From: an uncultured Gemmatimonadales bacterium
Lineage (GTDB): Bacteria > Gemmatimonadota > Gemmatimonadetes > Gemmatimonadales > GWC2-71-9
DNA length: 64,000 nt
Direction of reading: 5' to 3'
Assembly (NCBI GenBank): GCA_963844035.1
Contig: CAWJMT010000035.1
Location: forward strand, 224,001 to 288,000
A program made the translations under genes and the position numbers. The notes beneath the pieces are model-generated. The model was not told the origin of the DNA. It ran no database searches and saw only the letters and a list, made by a program, of their open reading frames with translations. Positions 8,029-60,803 of the stretch are shown piece after piece. Position 1 is the first letter of the stretch; every line of letters starts with the position of its first letter.

Positions 8029-8111
8029 GGACGGGCAGGCGGTTAGGCGGTGTGGCGGTCGTCTGCCTGGCGGTTCTTGCTACCGCCTGCCCGCCCAACC
8101 GCCCGACCGCC
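8029..8111. repeat. inverted pair of 8-bp tandem arrays (NGGCGGTN x4 / NACCGCCN x4)
   Basis: ggacgggc aggcggtt aggcggtg tggcggtc ... accgcct gcccgccc aaccgccc gaccgcc. Confidence 0.75.
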
Positions 8112-8711
8112 GCCTCACTCACCATCGGTCGTCTCCACTACGACGGCGGCGGCGATTGGTACGCCGGTCCATCGTCGTTGCCCAACCTGCTCGCCGCGAT
8201 TCGCGCGCGGACGTCGCTGCAGGTGGCGGAGCGGGAGCGCATCGTCACGCTGCGCAGCGCCGACCTGTGGGACGTCCCGTACCTGTTCATGCGAGGACAC
8301 GGCAACGTCCACTTTGCCGACGACGAGGTGACGCTGCTGCGCCGCTACCTGGAGCAGGGTGGGTTTCTCCATGCTGACGATGACTACGGAATGGACGCTG
8401 CGTTCCGGCGGGAAATCCAGCGCGTGTTCCCCGACCACCCCCTCGTAGAAGTGCCGTTGACGCACCCCATCTATCATCTGGTGTATGACTTCCCTCGCGG
8501 CCTGCCCAAGATCCACGAGCACGACGGCCTCCCTGCGCAGGGCTTCGGGATTTTTTTGGGAGAGCGACTCGCCGTATACTATTCCTACCAGACTGATCTC
8601 GGCGACGGTTGGGAAGACCCGGAGGTACACCACGACCCCCCAGAGCTCCACGAAGCGGCGCTGCGCATGGGCGTCAATCTCTTCACGTACGCGGTGAGCG
8701 CGATCCGGTGA
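8052..8711 (+). CDS. DUF4159 domain protein (exported)
   Basis: RLHYDGGGDWY..PSSLPNL, PYLFM.GHG, GGFLHADD.YG, GLPKIHEHDG, DLGDGWED, ALRMGVN; true start may lie slightly upstream. Confidence 0.85.
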   Translation: MAVVCLAVLATACPPNRPTAASLTIGRLHYDGGGDWYAGPSSLPNLLAAIRARTSLQVAERERIVTLRSADLWDVPYLFMRGHGNVHFADDEVTLLRRYLEQGGFLHADDDYGMDAAFRREIQRVFPDHPLVEVPLTHPIYHLVYDFPRGLPKIHEHDGLPAQGFGIFLGERLAVYYSYQTDLGDGWEDPEVHHDPPELHEAALRMGVNLFTYAVSAIR

Positions 8712-11700
8712 CGGAAACCGCCAGGCGGTTGCGGCGTCTCGGGCGGCCACATGCCCGCGCCCGCGTCACCGCCACGGTCCTTGGGAGCGCTGGTGTCGCG
8801 CTCGCGATCGCCGCCGCGGGACTGTGGCTCGCGCCATGGGGCTTGGGGATAGCCGCCGCGTGGCTCGCGATTATTGCGGTCGGGGGGGTGGCGGTGCGCG
8901 TGGCAGGGCGCGCCGGCCGCGCGCTCGAGCCACGGATCTTGGCCCGGATGCTCGAAGGCACGAGCGAGGCACGTGCTGGAAGCGTGATCGGGACCATCGA
9001 ACCTGCCGGGGGCGATCTCTTCGCCCTCGCGGATGCGCACGCGGCGCGCGCCGTGACGGCGGCCGCGCCGCAGGTGCGCAGGATACTCGCCCGCGGCACG
9101 CGAGCCAGGCTCGTGGTGGGAATGGTAGCGGCGGCGGCTGGTGCCGCGCTGTTTGTCGCAGCCTCGCCCGCAGCGGGGCGCGCGGCGTTCTGGCATCCGC
9201 TGCGGGCGCTCGCCGACGCACGTGCGCCGGTGCGTCTCGAGGTGGATCGTTCGAGCGCGCGGCGTGGCGACATCGCCACGGTCACCATCGAGGCACCAGC
9301 GGCGACTGCCGCGATCCTCTGGACGCGGGGGCCGGGCGAGCCGTGGCGGTCGATCCCGGTGGCGCTCGACTCGGCGGGTCGCGCGGTTCAACGGGTGGGA
9401 CCGCTCGAGGCCGATCTCTACCTCCGGGCCACGAGCGGTGTGCGGCGCAGCGACGATCGCAAGATCGCCGTGGCGCTCCCCGCCTTTCTCGCCGCCCTCG
9501 ACGTGACGGCCCGGTTCCCCGCTTACCTGGAGCGCGCCGACGAATCGGTCCTTCCCGGTCCCGACACGATCCTCGTCCCGGAGGGAACGGAAATCGTCAC
9601 GGGCGGCGCCGCCAGCGTGGCGCTCGGGAGTGCGGCATGGATCGGTCGGGGTAGGGCCCGCGGGGATGGGGCTAGCGGTGGCGGGATCGCAGTTCAGAGG
9701 CCGGTTCAGGCCCGTCGCCTCGGGCACGTGGCAGCTCGTCCTCGTTCCGGCCGATGGTGGTGGTCTCGAGGGGGATGTGCCCGCGCTGCACCTGCGCGTG
9801 GTGCCCGACTCCGCTCCGACCGTCTCGGTTCCTGTTCCCGGACGCGACACGATTCTCCCGATTACGCTACGCCAACCGCTCGTGATCGATGCGCGCGACG
9901 ACCATGGCGTGAGGCGCGTCGACATCGTGAGCTGGCGCGTGAGCCAGACCGGCAAAGTGGGTGACACGCTGCGCCGGTCGGTCGACGTGAGCGGCGCAGG
10001 CGACCGCGCGTTGCTGCAAGGTGCGCTCGATGCTGAGGGCCGCGGGTTGCTTCCCGGCGACACCCTACGGTTCCGAGTCGAGGCGTGGGACAATGCGCCC
10101 GTGGCGCACCGCGGGCAGAGCGCGGAGGTCGCGCTCCGGCTGGCGAGCCTTGCGGAGCTGCGGGCGGCCACGCGGTCCGCAACGCAGGACGTCGGGTCGA
10201 GCGCCGACTCGCTCGCGACGGCGGCGGCCGACCTTTCCCGGCGCATGGCCGATCTGGCGCAGGAACGTCCGCGCGAGGGCAGTGCGGCTGGCGAGCGTGC
10301 CGCGGGTGCCCAGGCGGGAAGCCTCCCGTTCGAGGTGAGCGAGCGCGCCACCGCGATCGCCGACCAGGTGGCCGAGCTGCAGGAGCGCGCGCGACAGCTC
10401 GCCCAGGCGGTGGAGCGGGTGGCGCGGGTTGCGCAGCAGGCCGGCTTGACCGACACCGCGTTCCAGTCGCGTCTGGAGGAAGTGCGACAGCTGTTGCAGC
10501 AGGCGCTCACACCCGAGCTGGAGCAGCGACTGCGCGACCTGCAGGCGGCCCTGGAGCGACTCAACCCCGATGCCACGCGCCAGGCGCTCGAGCAGCTGGC
10601 CGAGTCGCAGCGCCAGTTCCGCGAGGCCCTCGAACGCAGCCGGTCGCTGTTCCAGCGCGCCGCCGTCGAGGGTGCACTCGAGTCTCTGGCCGCAGACGCA
10701 GAGGATCTGCGGCGCAGGCAAGGCGACTGGAACCGGGCGCTCCCGGCGCGGTCCGATAGCGCGGCCGGCCGGCGCGAGCGGGCGCTGGCGGTGCGCGCCG
10801 ATTCGCTGACCCGGGCGATCGCGCGGATGGGTGGCGATCTCGCGCGGACCGGGTCCGCCCGGAGCGGAAGCGCGCCGCTCGCGACTCCACAGGCGGCGGC
10901 GGCCCGGGCGACGGGCGCCATGCAGGGGGCGGCGTCCGCGGCGGACGCGAATGATGCGGCGCGGGCGATGCGCGACGGCGCCGTCGCGGAGTCGGCGCTG
11001 GCGGAAATCCCCGACCAGTTGCGTGCCCAACGGGATTCGGCGGTGCGGGCCTGGCGTCAGGAAACGCTGGACGCCCTCGACCGCGCGCTTTCCGAGAGCG
11101 CGGCACTCGCGGAACGGCAGCTGCGGATCGCGGAAGGCCTGCGCGCGGGCGAGGCCGGCGCTGCGGCGCGCTCCCGCCAGGCGTCGGTGGAGGAGGGCAC
11201 GCAGGTGATCGGACGGCAGATTCGGGCGGCGTCGGGCCGGCATGCCCTTGTCTCACCGGAGCTCGAGGGCGCCTTGGCCCTCGCGCGCCACCAGATGCGC
11301 GCGGCGCGCGAACAGCTCGAGGCCCCCGTTCCCAACCCGGATGCGGCAGCGGCGTTGGCGGAAGGGTCGGTGGATGCACTGAACGCGACCGCGTATGCAC
11401 TGGCACGGACTCGCAGCGACGTAGCCAACGCGAAGTCGGGGAGTGGATTCGCCGAGGCCATGGAGCGCCTCACGAAGCTGGCAGGCCAGCAGGGAGCATT
11501 GAACGCCCAGGCGCAGGGTCTGCTGCCGCTCGGCGCCGGCGCCGGCGATGCGGTACAGGAGCAGCTGCGCGCGTTGGCGGCGCAGCAGCGGGCGCTCGCG
11601 GACCAGCTTGACCGGCTGCGGGCCGAGGGTGCGAGTTCAGCGGCGGGCGCGCTGGGGCAGGAGGCCCGCGATCTCGCCCGGCAACTCGAGGCAGGGCGAC

Positions 11701-11984
11701 TCGATTCTCAAACGGTGCGACGCCAGGATCATCTGTATCACCGTCTGCTCGATGCGGGCCGGACCCTGACCAGCGCCTCGCCCGACGAGCAGCGGGCGCG
11801 GGTCAGCCGGCCGGCGACGGAGGGCGACGTGCACACGCCGGCCTTGTTGGCACCGGGCGCCACGGGCTCAGGTCCGCCGCTCCGCTATCCCACGTGGGAT
11901 GAGTTGATGGCGCTGACACCAGAGCAGCGCCGGCTGGTGCTCGAATACTTCCGACGCATCAATGCGCCACCGGTTGCGCACTAG
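8708..11984 (+). CDS. DUF4175-like membrane-anchored coiled-coil protein; apparent frameshift near 9640
   Basis: N-terminal TM helices, PAYL motif, VVPDSAPTV..DDHGV, LLPGD.L..RVEAWDN, long Q/A/E/R coiled coil, C-terminal LVLEYFRRI. Confidence 0.7.
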
Positions 11985-13710
11985 CGGCCTGGTGGGCACC
12001 GCGCTCATGGCGCTCGCGCCGTGTGGTGCGACCGCGCAGGCCATCGGCGGGGGCTTCGACCTCGAGCGGGCCGGTCAGCCCGCGCGGGCGGCCACCGTCT
12101 ATCTGTCCACCCTGCGCAGTGACCCCACCAACCTGGCCGCACTGCTCGGCCTCGAGCGCGTGCTCCCGCAGCTGCAGCGCATGCCGGAGCTGCTGCCGCT
12201 GGCACAGCAGGCGGTCGCGCGCGACTCCGCGAGCGGCTCGTTGCGCGGCCTGCTGGTGCGGACGTACGTCGCGCTCGACATGCCCGACAGCGCGATGGCG
12301 GTGGCGGAGCGTTGGGCCCGGAGTCGTCCTCAAGACGAGGAGCCGTATCGGGAGTGGGCACTTGCGCTGGCGGAGCATCATTTCAGTACCGAGGCCCGGC
12401 GGGTGCTCGGCGCCGGCCGGAAGGCATTGGGTGGGCCCGCCACCTTTGCCCTCGAGCTGGCCGCGCTCGCACAGCAAGCCGGTGATTGGGAGGGCGCGGC
12501 GCAGGAGTGGGTATTAGTCATCACGGCAACGCCGGCGCAGGCGCAGACAGCGCTGACGCAGCTCGCCGACGCGCCAGCAGAGCAGCGCGAACGGATGGTC
12601 CGAGCGCTTACACCGCGCGGCGGCCCGGTGCTCGGCGTGCGGCTCGCCGCGGAGCTCCTGCTCGGATGGGGCGACCCCGCGCGCGCGTGGACCATTTTCG
12701 CGACCACGGTCGAGACCCCATCGGCGGATGCCGGCTACGCGCTGCGGCGCTTTGCCGATCTGGCCGGCGCGCTCAGAACGCCCGCTGGGTGGCGCGTGCG
12801 CGGGCTCGCCCTCAGCCGGTTCGCCGGTTTCGCTCCCGCGCGCGTGGCGGTCCGGGCGCGAGCGGAGGCCGCGCGATCATTTCTGCAGGCCGGGGACGCG
12901 GCGGCGGCGCGCATCGAGCTCGAACGCGTGGTGGATGACGGCAGCGCACCGCCTGATGCGCAGCGGCTCGCGACCGCCACGCTGATCGGCGTCTTGATCG
13001 GAGAGGGGCAGCTCGACAGCGCGACGGCGCGGCTGCAGGCCGCACGCATCCGCCTCGGCGCAGAGGATCGGGCGGCGCTCCGGGCGGCGCTCGCGCGGGC
13101 ACGCATTCGCCGGGGCGAGTTGATCCGAGCCGACTCCCTGGTGGCGAACGACTCCAGCGTCGAAGCCCTCGCACTGCAGGGCTGGCTCGCGCTGTACCGC
13201 GGCAATTTGCGCGAGGCGCGCGCGCGACTCGGGGCGGCCGGCCCCTATGCCGGTGATCGTCGTGAGGCGACTGCGCGCACCGCGATGTTGGCCCTCATGG
13301 AACGTCTCCCGCGCGACACTTTCCCTGCGCTGGGCCGCGCACTGCTCACGCTGGCGCGCGGCGATTCGGCTGTCGCGGTGACGGAGCTGCGGCGCGCCGC
13401 GGATGAGCTCACGGCGGAGCAGGGCCGGGGAGATGTCCTGCTCGTGGCCGGCCGGATCGCTGCGCAGCTTGGCCCGCAGGGCGAAGCGACGGCGATCGTG
13501 CTGTTCGAGGAGGTCGTGCGCATCGGTGGCACCGGGTCGGCGCCGCCGGCGGCCGAGCTGGCCTGGGCCGAGCTGCTGCTGCGCCAGGGGCACCTCGAGG
13601 CCGCGATCAAACACCTCGAAAGTGTCATTCTTGCGTATCCCGAAAGCGCGGTCGTGCCCGAGGCGCGCCGGCGGCTCGACGCAGCGAAGGGAGCGATTCC
13701 CAAGTCGTGA
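11962..13710 (+). CDS. tetratricopeptide-repeat protein (exported)
   Basis: Signal-like N-terminus, Ala/Leu-rich helical repeats, C-terminal AIKHLESVILAYPESAVVPEARRRL. Confidence 0.75.
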   Translation: MRHRLRTSGLVGTALMALAPCGATAQAIGGGFDLERAGQPARAATVYLSTLRSDPTNLAALLGLERVLPQLQRMPELLPLAQQAVARDSASGSLRGLLVRTYVALDMPDSAMAVAERWARSRPQDEEPYREWALALAEHHFSTEARRVLGAGRKALGGPATFALELAALAQQAGDWEGAAQEWVLVITATPAQAQTALTQLADAPAEQRERMVRALTPRGGPVLGVRLAAELLLGWGDPARAWTIFATTVETPSADAGYALRRFADLAGALRTPAGWRVRGLALSRFAGFAPARVAVRARAEAARSFLQAGDAAAARIELERVVDDGSAPPDAQRLATATLIGVLIGEGQLDSATARLQAARIRLGAEDRAALRAALARARIRRGELIRADSLVANDSSVEALALQGWLALYRGNLREARARLGAAGPYAGDRREATARTAMLALMERLPRDTFPALGRALLTLARGDSAVAVTELRRAADELTAEQGRGDVLLVAGRIAAQLGPQGEATAIVLFEEVVRIGGTGSAPPAAELAWAELLLRQGHLEAAIKHLESVILAYPESAVVPEARRRLDAAKGAIPKS

Positions 13711-15019
13711 GGCGGAGAGAGTTCGTACGGGCGGTCGGGCGGACAGGCGGTCTGGCGGTCACGGCGGATCTCCTTGGCCTGCCGTCTCTGACCGCCCGAC
13801 CGCCCGACCGTCTGACCGCCCAGCTTCTCATCCCCATGGACGAGGCGCAAACCGACCATCTCAAAGCGTACGGCGTGACGTATCGAGTCATCCAAGCCGG
13901 TATGCAGGCGGAGTGGCTGCTCAACTATCGCGGCGGATCGTTTCTCGTCCCCGATGGGACGGCGATCCGACGTGACGCCGGGCTGACCGGCGCGCGGGTC
14001 GAGCCCGTCACGCGCGGACGACATCGCCGCGATCCGCGGAACGATCGGGGCGACGAATGCGGACTGCCATCCCGCTCGAGAAGGCGCCCAAGATTGCCGT
14101 GTACGTGCCGCCCAACGCCCCCCCGTGGGACGATGCGGTGACGATGGCGCTCCAGTACGCCGGCGTCCCGTTCGACAAGGTGTGGGACTTCGAGGTGATT
14201 GGCGGGACACTCCCGCGGTACGACTGGCTGCACCTGCACCACGAGGATTTCACGGGTCAATACTCGAAATTTTCTCTGACGCACGCCGGCAAGCCGTGGC
14301 TCGCCGAGATGGTGCAGGTCAATACCGACGCGGCGAAACGCCTCGGGTTTCGCAACGTCCCCGATCTCAAGGGCGCTGTCGCCCGGGTGATCCGCGACTA
14401 CGTCGCGAACGGTGGCTTTTTGTTCGCCATGTGCACCGCGACGGAGACGATCGACCTTGCGCTGGCCGCCGAGCACGTCGACATCGCGGCGCGACTGGCG
14501 GACGGGACCCCGATCGACCCCGCGGCCGACCGGAAGCTCGACTGGAGCCGGAGCATCGCCTTCACCGGCGCGCACATCGAGCCGGACGCGACGGTCCCGA
14601 GCTTCTCCGACATCGATGGTCACCAGGTGAACGTTCCCACCCGGCAGCGACCGCTGGGCGCGTTCAAGCTCTTCAACTTCAGCGCCAAATTCGACCCGGT
14701 GGCCGCGATGCTGGTGCAAAACCACCGCGACTCGATTCCGGACTTCTACGGGCTGACGACTTCGTTCATGCGCGACCGGCTGAAGCCCAGCGTGGTGGTG
14801 CTGGCCGATGAACCCGGTGCGCCGTGGGTGAAGTACATCCACGGCAACCTGGGGAAGGGTACCTGGACGTTCTTCGGTGGCCACGATCCCGAAGATCCCC
14901 AACACGTGCTGGGCGAAGCGCCGACGGACCTGTCGTTGCACCCGCATTCGCCGGGGTATCGCCTCATCCTGAACAACGTGCTTTTCCCGGCCGCCAAGAA
15001 ACGGGAGCTGAAGACGTGA
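13707..15019 (+). CDS. Tat-exported protein of the family often labelled 'asparagine synthetase B' (GATase-like fold); apparent frameshift near 14020
   Basis: RRREFV Tat-like motif; LIPMDEAQTDHLKAYG, WLLNYRGGSF, PWDDAVT.AL.YA, DWLHLHHEDFTGQY, GGFLFAMC, GGHDPED, SPGYRLILNNVLFPAA. Confidence 0.8.
13729..13821. repeat. inverted pair of 8-bp tandem arrays (GGGCGGTC-type x4)
   Basis: gggcggtc gggcggac aggcggtc tggcggtc a ... tgaccgcc cgaccgcc cgaccgtc tgaccgcc c. Confidence 0.9.
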
Positions 15020-18417: not shown

Positions 18418-18427
18418 AGGGGGAGAC

Positions 18428-18455
18428 GACGCTAAGACGCTAAGACGCTATGAGC
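18428..18455. repeat. 8-bp tandem repeat (GACGCTAA x3), copy 1
   Basis: gacgctaagacgctaagacgctatgagc; 27/28 identical to 25589-25616. Confidence 0.85.
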
Positions 18456-19721: not shown

Positions 19722-19725
19722 GAAG

Positions 19726-19803
19726 CAGGTGTCAGGTGTTAGGTGTCAGGTGTCAGGGGATTCGCGGTGTCTCTGGCACCTGACACCTGGTACCTGACAC
19801 CTG
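19726..19803. repeat. inverted pair of 7-bp tandem arrays (CAGGTGT x4-5 / ACACCTG x4) forming a long hairpin
   Basis: caggtgt caggtgt taggtgt caggtgt cagggga ... gcacctg acacctg gtacctg acacctg, between the tRNA-Ser 3' end and the gltX start. Confidence 0.9.
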
Positions 19804-19812
19804 TCTTTCACA

Positions 19813-25588: not shown

Positions 25589-25616
25589 GACGCTAAGACG
25601 CTAAGACGCTACGAGC
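25589..25616. repeat. 8-bp tandem repeat (GACGCTAA x3), copy 2
   Basis: gacgctaagacgctaagacgctacgagc. Confidence 0.85.
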
Positions 25617-25637
25617 CCACCCTGTTTCTCCCGGACA

Positions 25638-25675
25638 TCCCTGACACCTAACACCCAGCACCTGACACCTGCTTC
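25638..25675. repeat. 7-bp tandem array (ACACCTG-type x4), single arm
   Basis: tccctg acaccta acaccca gcacctg acacctg cttc; close to the reverse complement of 19722-19760. Confidence 0.8.
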
Positions 25676-26340
25676 TCTCAACCGCGCAGTCGTTTCCTGC
25701 GAGCGATGCATGCGCCTGCGCGCCTACTGCAGGCGCGTGGCGCGCGAAAAGAAGCGCGAGTACAGCGACTGGGAGTACTGGGGTAAGCCGGTTCCGGGGT
25801 TCGGCGACGTGCGTGCACGGCTGTTGATCGTCGGTCTCGCCCCCGGGGCTCACGGGTCGAACCGCACGGGACGGATGTTCACGGGAGACTCGAGCGGACA
25901 CTGGTTATACGAGGCGCTGTACCGCTTCGGGTTCGCCAGCCAGCCCGACGCCGTCGCCCGGGATGATGGTCTCGAGCTACGCGATTGCTACATCACGGCG
26001 GCGGCGCGGTGCGCTCCACCCGCCAACAAGCCGACCCGCGCCGAGCTGGAGCGGTGCCGCCCGTTCCTCGCGACCGAGCTGCAGATCCTGTCGCGTGTGC
26101 GGGTCGTGGTAACGCTGGGCCAGGTGGCGCACGAGAGCTGGCTGCGCACGGCAGGGTGGTGGGAGGCGCTTCCGCCGCGCGAGCGGCCGCGCTTCTCGCA
26201 CGGCGCGGTGACGCGGCTGTCGAACGATACGACGCTGATCTCCTCCTACCACCCCAGCCGGCAGAACACCAACACCGGCAAGCTGACGCGTCGCGATGTG
26301 GCATGCGGTGTTTCGGAGCGTGCGGCGAGATCATTTCATT
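25641..26340 (+). CDS. uracil-DNA glycosylase family 5 (UdgB-like, Fe-S); start and end approximate
   Basis: C..C.RL (in frame upstream of ATG 25710), YWGKPVPGFGD, GLAPGAHGSNRTGRMFTGDSSG, RCAPP.NKP, YHPSRQNTNTGKLT. Confidence 0.88.
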
Positions 26341-59198: not shown

Positions 59199-60803
59199 AG
59201 GCGGTCAGGCGGACCGGCGGTCTGGCGGTCGGCTTCTTGGCCGGAGCATTGGTGACCGCCCGACCGCCCGACCGCCTGACCGCCCAATCTCTCTGGCGTC
59301 CCGACGAGCGGGTGCTCATCAGTGATTTCTCCTACGTCCGCGCGATCGCCGCGTCACCTTCGCTGGTCGTCGCCGCCACCACCCATGGCCTGACGATCTA
59401 TGATCGTCTCGCGCGCGCCTGGCAGCTGCCGGTGACGGCGCTGGATGGCTACCCGGTCGCGCCGGTGCGCGTGGCGCTCGCCGATGTGGTGGGCAACGCG
59501 GTTTGGTTCGGGACGGAGATGGGCTGGGCCCGCTTCGACGTCGATATCCGCCGCTGGGAGGAAGGGTACGCCGCGGGGGGCGTGAGCAACCTCATGATCG
59601 ATGCCGGCGATCCCGCGAGCGGGGCATACGTCCAAACTGGTGCGGGGTGGGGGTTCCTGGCCCGCGGCATGCCGGCGCCGGTCCTCGGTGGGCCGCTGCC
59701 GCCGCCGGGACGCCGCGTGGTTCCGCTGACCCCCGAGGCCGCATTGCGGCTGGCGCCGGCAGCGGACGCGCTGCGCGCCTTCCTGCTCACGGATGCGCGG
59801 CTGCGCACCGCCCGGTTCACCAGCGCCGCGCGCACCTCCGACCGCTCCGAGCTGTTCTTCGGTACCAGCGGTGTGGGTGTCGTGCGATTCGACCCGACGA
59901 GCACGGAACGCGAGCCGCTGCCGTTCGGACTGCTGGCACCTCGCAGCGGTGCGCTGGCCCTTGAGGGGAACGGTGTGTGGGTGGCGAGCCTGGCGCGCGT
60001 GGGCGAGCGCAGCGGGCTCAGCTGGGTCGCCGCCGATCTTTCCACCGTCAAGACGTTCCAGGGCGCGGGCGTCACCGGCTACGGCTTTTTGGAGGGTCGC
60101 CGGCTCGTCGCCGCCGGGCCGTTTCTGTGGCTCGCGTGTGAGCGTGGCGTACTGAAGATCGACCCGGGGAGCGAGCGGAGCCGTCTGTTCGAAGCACGCA
60201 GCGTGCTGCCCGATGCGGTACTGAGTCTCGCACCGGCCCCCGATGGTGTGTGGGTGGGGACGGCGCGCGGGCTTGCCCGCATCACGCCCGACGACCGCGT
60301 GCTCACGATCGGAACGCTCACGCATCCCGTGCTCTCCCTGCTGGTCGTGCACGACAGCCTATGGGTCGGCACGACTGCCGGGCTCGGATTACTCCGCTAC
60401 GGCGATGAAGAGGTGGGCGTCCCGCCGGAAATCGCCGAGCAACCCTCATTGCGAGCGCCGATTCTCGCGCTCGCCACCGTCGGCGACGTGCTCGTCGTGG
60501 TGACCGTGGACCAGTTCGCCTGGCGCGATCCCGCCACGAGCCGGTGGACGCTGCTTCACGCCCGCACCGACCTGGGCGCGATCACCGCGCTCGCGGGCGA
60601 TCCCGAGGCCGGCGGCGTGTGGATCGCGGGGACGACCGGCGTGGCGTTCTGGGAGCTGCCACGCGGCACGTTCCACGTCTTGCGGGCGCCCGATGACGTT
60701 CCGGCCGCGGTGCACGATATCGCCGTCGATGCGCGACTTCGTCTGGGTTGCCACGGACAGCGGACTGGTGCGCTTCACTCGCTCCGCGGCGCTGGGCCGA
60801 TGA
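59195..60803 (+). CDS. secreted beta-propeller protein; apparent frameshift near 60740
   Basis: Signal peptide; repeated (V/L)W(V/F)GT..G(L/V) blades; C-terminus VWVATDSGLVRF in the next frame, stop overlaps the thiL ATG. Confidence 0.7.
59199..59285. repeat. inverted pair of 8-bp tandem arrays (AGGCGGTC-type x4)
   Basis: aggcggtc aggcggac cggcggtc tggcggtc ... gaccgcc cgaccgcc cgaccgcc tgaccgcc c. Confidence 0.9.

Follow-up and report, generated by a model that had tools for sequence, protein, structure and literature searches.

A hairpin built of short tandem repeats lies at the very start of a gene for a predicted exported protein in DNA from an uncultured Gemmatimonadales bacterium (lineage GWC2-71-9); the window analyzed is a stretch of 64,000 nucleotides, positions 224,001 to 288,000 of contig CAWJMT010000035.1 in assembly GCA_963844035.1. 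The gene opens at a GTG (13707) that overlaps the TGA stop codon (13708-13710) of the gene upstream, and from this GTG the reading frame is MRRREFVR-AVGRTGGLAV-TADLLGLPSL-TARPPDRLTA-Q-LLIPMD. The features of the locus, together with two sister elements elsewhere in the window, are collected in Table 1.

Table 1. Features of the hairpin locus and sister elements (positions within the window; a slash marks predicted cleavage)
Feature	Position	Strand	Remarks
TPR-repeat (tetratricopeptide-repeat) protein gene, upstream	11962-13710	+	from the list of open reading frames (ORFs); weak TPR-type NCBIfam matches below cut-off
Predicted signal peptide of the twin-arginine translocation (Tat) type, 38 residues	13707-13820	+	GTG start; predicted cleavage after A38 (L-T-A/Q)
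Twin-arginine motif R-R-R-E-F-V	13710-13727	+	outside the repeat; fits the TatP pattern
Left arm	13729-13761	+	about four G-rich 8-nt units; encodes AVGRTGGLAV; 18 nt past the upstream stop
Loop	13762-13788	+	27 nt; encodes TADLLGLPSL; not repeat-derived
Right arm	13789-13821	+	reverse-complement array; encodes TARPPDRLTA
Mature domain, conserved protein of unknown function	13821-15019	+	interrupted in this assembly by single-base (+1) insertions near 14013 and 14065
Sister paired octamer array	8032-8109	+	in the predicted signal peptide of a gene a few genes upstream; overlapping GTG 8015 one base out of frame in the assembly
Sister element	59200-59284	+	forms almost all of the predicted Sec signal of the gene that starts at ATG 59196 (MKAVRRTGGLAV...TARPPDRLTA/Q)

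The two arms, of 33 nt each, are complementary at 28 of 33 positions across the 27-nt loop, and each holds about four copies of an 8-nt unit, the one array being the mirror image of the other. As RNA, the segment 13690-13850 folds with -93.8 kcal/mol (z -5.64), and none of 200 shuffled sequences was as stable. The left arm extends from the second base of codon R8 to the first base of codon T19, and the right arm from the second base of codon L28 to the first base of codon Q39. These results reproduce the arms, loop and translation given in a first-pass annotation of this DNA, with the small correction that the Q codon is merely touched by the right arm and does not belong to the peptide that it encodes. 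Public contigs that align to the region do not span the hairpin, so the evidence for it comes from this assembly and from similar alleles of relatives such as L056, L057 and L074.

Comparative evidence for the signal peptide is strong, and the signal is likely real but atypical. The longest uncharged run after the twin-arginine motif is 8 residues in this allele, the core being interrupted by R, R and D. TATFIND sets its core threshold at 13 uncharged residues within 22, and the present core falls short of it. The best 10-residue hydropathy is 1.84, the median for repeat-free orthologues being 1.79, and the predicted L-T-A/Q site aligns within one residue of the A/Q of Sec-type outgroup orthologues. 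The genome encodes TatC (E 2.8e-65). Curated Tat-signal profiles gave no match, with 0 Pfam families for residues 1-48 and four full orthologues (E up to 10) and 0 NCBIfam families. RR-E-F-V, residues 3-7, fits the TatP pattern RR.[FGAVML][LITMVF], which is looked for within the first 35 residues (PMC6085387), as do the signals of 158 of the 159 orthologues in the RR class described below, a partly circular figure since that class was defined by a similar pattern. The RR-x-F motif, the Gly-rich core, the length of 38 residues and the basic c-region residue resemble canonical Tat signals (PMC6085387); the core broken by charged residues and the lack of a match to any library Tat model set this signal apart. 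The protein family as a whole alternates between Sec-type and twin-arginine signals, with Sec in most outgroups and RR in two families and, separately, in a few other lineages (L188, L190, L195).

Orthologues were collected as 228 loci; the anchor motif was present in 198, distinct loci with enough upstream DNA numbered 183, and 180 were placed on a tree. The RR class comprises 159 of them, after removal of two Sec-type signals that fit the RR pattern by chance; 48 carry a hairpin, 31 an array without a hairpin (one of these rows, L009, derives from the unpublished genome G020), and 80 no repeat at all. The first-pass annotation held that the repeat builds the Tat signal and proposed aligning homologues to see whether their signals lack it. 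Because the RR motif lies outside the arms and half of the class (80/159) is repeat-free, we conclude that the repeat did not build the signal. Outgroup orthologues mostly have ordinary Sec-type signals whose A/Q end lies at the same place. On the tree, a well-supported clade (0.956) is repeat-free at 56 of 58 tips, the clade that includes the window (support only 0.42) is repeat-bearing at 68 of 73, and a separate family-level clade is repeat-bearing at 7 of 8, the arms of its paired alleles sitting further downstream.

Where the repeat is present it turns over quickly. Tree neighbors differ in their units, which may be 8-mers or 10-mers, and so in the peptides that these encode, and in L051, L070 and L045 a single arm has been swapped, leaving two arms from different unit families. 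Scoring the units gave 51 labels, which change 60 times on the tree (65.9 on average after shuffling); the labels overstate the number of families, because degenerate copies are labelled separately, and we use them solely as a sign of fast turnover. The median signal length is 36 residues in hairpin alleles, 34 in array-only alleles and 33 in repeat-free ones. This near-constancy, although the arms span about 22 codons here, points to replacement of sequence and not to insertion. All 81 repeat-bearing loci with a recognizable start are in frame, despite units of 8 or 10 nt.

The hairpin belongs to a family that is spread across the genome, in which we found 108 paired mirror-image arrays with units of 7, 8 or 10 nt; a control on three contigs gave 1 paired array after shuffling vs 38 in the real sequence. 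The order of the arms is constant, with the G-rich arm first, the loop sequence is different at every site, and no target-site duplication is evident by eye in aligned alleles. Arrays start 0-10 nt past a stop codon in 26 of 108 cases, vs 2.8% for random intergenic placement, and 14 further arrays overlap a stop codon, which the array possibly supplies in some. By eye, 11 arrays are clear cases of location in a predicted signal peptide and 3 are probable ones, and two of the clear cases belong to copies of a single gene family that differ in their units; the start overlaps the upstream stop in 9 of the 13 signal-peptide cases examined. By a rough estimate, signal peptides make up about 1.4% of the DNA (540 of 2991 genes are signal-bearing by our heuristic) vs 10-13% of the elements. 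Further in-frame copies occupy internal loops and linkers. In Sec signals the array can begin at codon 2, while in Tat-type hairpin alleles it begins at nt 17 or later, which fits the need of arrays in Tat signals to spare the RR motif. A second signal locus, that of the sister octamer array in Table 1, turns over in the same way (of 31 alleles, 13 have a hairpin and 3 an array only), and units are common to both signal loci in 7 of 17 genomes (permutation p ~0.001 for 10-mers and 0.012 for 12-mers, significance that kin dependence inflates).

Arrays of this kind also flank genes for four-helix-bundle proteins (PF05635). In this genome all 7 such genes, at 5 distinct loci, lie between convergent arrays as judged by eye, and the family occurs in 30 of 32 relatives searched. 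Among 60 cassette loci in 9 relatives, arrays stand on both sides at 23, on one side at 15 and on neither at 22 by our own threshold. Units from the signal peptides recur in several cassette arms (in G110 and G041, and as 10-mers in G002 and G006). The element at 13729-13821 has no cassette gene inside it.

Taken together, we consider it probable that the hairpin is one copy of this genome-wide paired-array family, which overwrote the middle and the end of a pre-existing predicted Tat signal. On this reading the arrays would derive from the four-helix-bundle cassette, as its ends or its remnants, and would be put down or rewritten close to stop codons; if a gene start overlaps the preceding stop, they would land in the first 40 codons of the next gene. 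Signal peptides would be the main place where they survive, since the G-rich arm reads Gly/Arg/Ala/Val, resembling an n-region, and the C-rich arm Pro/Arg plus L-x-A, resembling a c-region, in a peptide that is discarded after export. What selection acts on is likely the frame, the RR motif and an end that can be cleaved, and not the repeat or the hairpin.

Several observations weigh against this account. The match within genomes between signal arrays and cassette arms is borderline (p ~0.05 over 10 genomes, with kin dependence), and since related genomes are non-independent all p values overstate the significance. This genome has no cassette bearing exactly the unit of the hairpin, the nearest differing by one base. 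Both the 0-10 nt result at stop codons and the signal-peptide census depend on our own gene caller and heuristic. The tree, made with FastTree, implies 12 changes in presence of the repeat with an ambiguous ancestral state; repeat-bearing alleles persist across a clade of 73 tips and could be useful; and among the 48 hairpin alleles there are 30 whose right arm ends at most 5 nt from the conserved domain, which also fits a use at the protein level.

Such a use forms the first alternative, in which the right arm was positively selected as a ready-made Pro-rich c-region with an L-x-A/Q signal-peptidase site. Among the clear Sec or Tat signals of the genome are 10 whose right arm ends in L-x-A/Q (or L-P-S/Q), and this arm seems to be retained more than the left, the 31 array-only alleles having mostly the right arm by eye. 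A six-frame search for TARPPDR[LP]TA, suggested in the first-pass annotation, returned 8 matches, of which 3 lie in signal peptides and are followed by Q. Against this, RR signals without any repeat are as common as stated above, AQ stands directly before the conserved domain in only 8 of 159 orthologues, the peptides encoded by different unit families are wholly unlike one another, and hairpin alleles have the poorer cores, an uncharged run of at least 13 residues being kept by 19 of 48, vs 59 of 80 repeat-free alleles. We regard positive selection of the arm as unlikely. The claim that the right arm supplies the predicted cleavage region holds for this allele, in which L-T-A/Q is so encoded; exaptation, likewise proposed, survives in a weak sense only, namely that the cleavage region is at present encoded by the repeat, the signal itself likely predating the repeat.

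A second alternative, to which we give slightly less credence still, is that the mRNA hairpin is the selected feature, slowing early elongation, controlling translational coupling or serving as an RNase processing site. The fold is very stable, hairpins begin 17-53 nt past the start codon in hairpin alleles and so leave the start clear, and G-U exceeds A-C in the hairpins of orthologues (39 vs 17). Repetitive extragenic palindromic (REP) sequences at most 15 nt from a stop codon are reported to stall ribosomes (PMC12306157); the present hairpin starts 18 nt past the upstream stop, outside that range. The hairpin is absent from 111 of 159 orthologues, with a median fold z of -4.89 in hairpin orthologues and of -0.23 and -0.01 in the two non-hairpin classes, and the tree holds 25 switches between hairpin and array-only states. 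The bias in mismatches is reversed in the 49 oriented elements of the genome (G-U 22 vs A-C 51); this excess of A-C over G-U on the sense strand is opposite to what RNA pairing would lead one to expect. A conserved ribosome-pausing hairpin is not supported by these sequence comparisons, and the earlier suggestion that the hairpin could slow early translation finds no consistent support, given its absence from most orthologues, the replacement of arms in close relatives and the inconsistent G-U/A-C bias.

About as doubtful as selection for the RNA fold is growth in place, by slippage from unit-like codons with the mirror arm made by template switching and with no cassette or dedicated protein involved. 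Such growth would agree with the absence of a length gain and of an obvious target-site duplication, with the existence of one-arm alleles and with cleavage-site codons such as those for L-T-A that contain one unit. It is at odds with the recurrence of units at unlinked loci and cassette ends, with units common to two genes within the same genome, with an orientation that is always G-rich arm first, and with the 81 of 81 loci in frame, since slips of 8 or 10 nt would usually break it. Finally, a true start at ATG 13836, which would turn the repeat into an ordinary intergenic hairpin, is very improbable: many database proteins are called from that Met (entries of 393 aa) and the Tat-signal models of Pfam and NCBIfam do not match, but the RR motif and open frame are preserved in 159 orthologues, the start overlaps a TGA in 146 of those 159, the LLIP residues preceding the Met are conserved, outgroup Sec signals occupy the same place, and the repeat-bearing loci keep the frame. 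GTG 13707 is very likely the true start, and a start downstream of the repeat, which the first-pass annotation had named as grounds for giving up its reading, is correspondingly improbable.

The gene downstream of the signal is broken by the two single-base insertions near 14013 and 14065, which the first-pass annotation had missed. The base at 14013 is absent from contigs 92-97% identical (4/4 runs), that at 14065 is absent in 3/3 covering runs, and frame changes occur in 33 of 124 test genes of the assembly (0.28 per kb). Because near relatives lack the extra bases and the assembly carries this indel load, the breaks are likely sequencing or assembly errors; they could still be a real strain-specific lesion. 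Programmed frameshifting at the two breaks was considered and rejected, given that near relatives lack both extra bases, that so many test genes are frame-changed and that most orthologues are intact. Overlapping long ORFs at 8609-9964 and 9630-11984 of the window resemble one frameshift-split gene, matching the indel load of the assembly. Among public sequencing runs none held half of the region's words, RNA runs holding 5-6%.

The product of the gene has named relatives that are Gemmatimonadales proteins, and of the 151 genomes of the order, 131 contain a match to its family. Neither Pfam nor NCBIfam assigned a family to the protein with its signal, and a profile search against solved structures gave a chance-level match only (E 0.33). 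Atlas clusters of the protein are auto-named 'asparagine synthetase B' and have no common Pfam family; Atlas matches to BPL_N/GATase-like clusters score 0.77-0.82 and are leads only.

REP sequences and the bacterial interspersed mosaic elements (BIMEs) that they form are associated with RAYT transposases. Like the arrays described here, these enterobacterial palindromes often lie just past stop codons (PMC12306157); they are not tandem 7-10-mers and are mainly extragenic, and the association here is with PF05635. Rickettsia palindromic elements (RPEs) are dispersed hairpin repeats about 100 nt long that occur between genes as well as in frame within them, whose insertion is described as neutral or slightly detrimental and tolerated (PMC2229807). 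An RPE is a fixed sequence that adds residues, whereas the present elements are 7-10-nt tandem arrays with a gene-specific loop, a nearly unchanged length, turnover of units and a preference for signal peptides. They share with RPEs and MITEs (miniature inverted-repeat transposable elements) the many dispersed copies with terminal inverted repeats and the stable stem-loop (108 elements; fold z -5.64), and they have no conserved internal block that adds length (loops differ; 36 vs 33 aa). In the Yersinia YPAL/RU-2 MITE fusion YPO1552 the repeat likewise forms part of a predicted signal peptide (PMC2229807); there a single locus is proposed to be a new exported protein, while here 11-14 genes of one genome are concerned and old, conserved exported proteins keep their signal as the repeat family is exchanged. 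The convergent GGGAATC heptamer pairs of Xanthomonas (PMC4692102) are also convergent short-unit tandem arrays, often near stops and 7-11% intragenic; they have one unit per genome and were studied as G-quadruplexes, and the available part of that paper draws no link to signal peptides, a term that it does not contain, or to four-helix-bundle proteins. Repeat-bearing Borg proteins, a different system, are enriched for signal peptides (PMC9879509); the available parts of PMC2653234 and PMC4679880 added nothing on signal peptides. Our literature search turned up no report of signal peptides built from arrays in Gemmatimonadota, nor of PF05635 genes flanked by arrays, most subscription journals and supplements lying outside its scope.

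A number of further elements were noted in passing. Intergenic arrays of other units lie in the window at 18420-18455, 19722-19812 and 25589-25680, the last of these being an 8-nt array that adjoins a 7-nt array of a different family. Elsewhere in the assembly (labelled G000, followed by contig and position), the paired arms at C3:75634-75790 and at C9:91759-91886 each stand in frame in two different surface loops of a single protein, separated by 25-35 codons of ordinary protein sequence. Paired arrays are in frame in linkers or loops of apparent housekeeping proteins at C3:382426, C9:94286, C12:1062, C4:13908, C5:164058, C13:9583, C17:3772 and C32:10827; from their motifs we take these proteins to be RadA-, YidC-, KsgA-, EngB- and PdxA-like. 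An AT-rich paired octamer array at C20:13738-13859, in a genome of 67% GC, has the same architecture and a foreign-looking unit, and C5:259790-259898 holds a palindrome of another type, unlike the arrays and with ends that resemble CCCTCACCCC. Several loci occur as diverged copies, namely a four-helix gene before a gidA/mnmG-like gene three times (C9:145127, C30:5309, C1:103422), a crcB-like gene twice (C1:11340, C17:4730) and an exported-protein gene at C3:12136 and C35:283196, whose signals are made of different octamer units. Diverged copies of this kind suggest that the assembly mixes strains or species.

That repeats occur within bacterial genes, and that one signal peptide was formed by a MITE, was already known; here, conserved exported proteins hold their length, frame and signal while different repeat families have time and again replaced the DNA that encodes the signal. 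A bolder idea, which we think improbable, is that four-helix-bundle cassettes drive a transposase-free rewriting in place beside stop codons with unit-specific mirror arrays, and so repeatedly regenerate the n- and c-regions of Gemmatimonadales Sec and Tat signals genome-wide, as an export-signal diversifier that would tune secretion or translational coupling. The alleles offer a ready series for asking how sequence-specific Tat or Sec signals are, and the replacement would account for gene callers dropping such signal peptides, as in the 393-aa calls. The arrays may further be read as dated traces of some unexplained rewriting of DNA that has ties to the PF05635 proteins, themselves long orphans.

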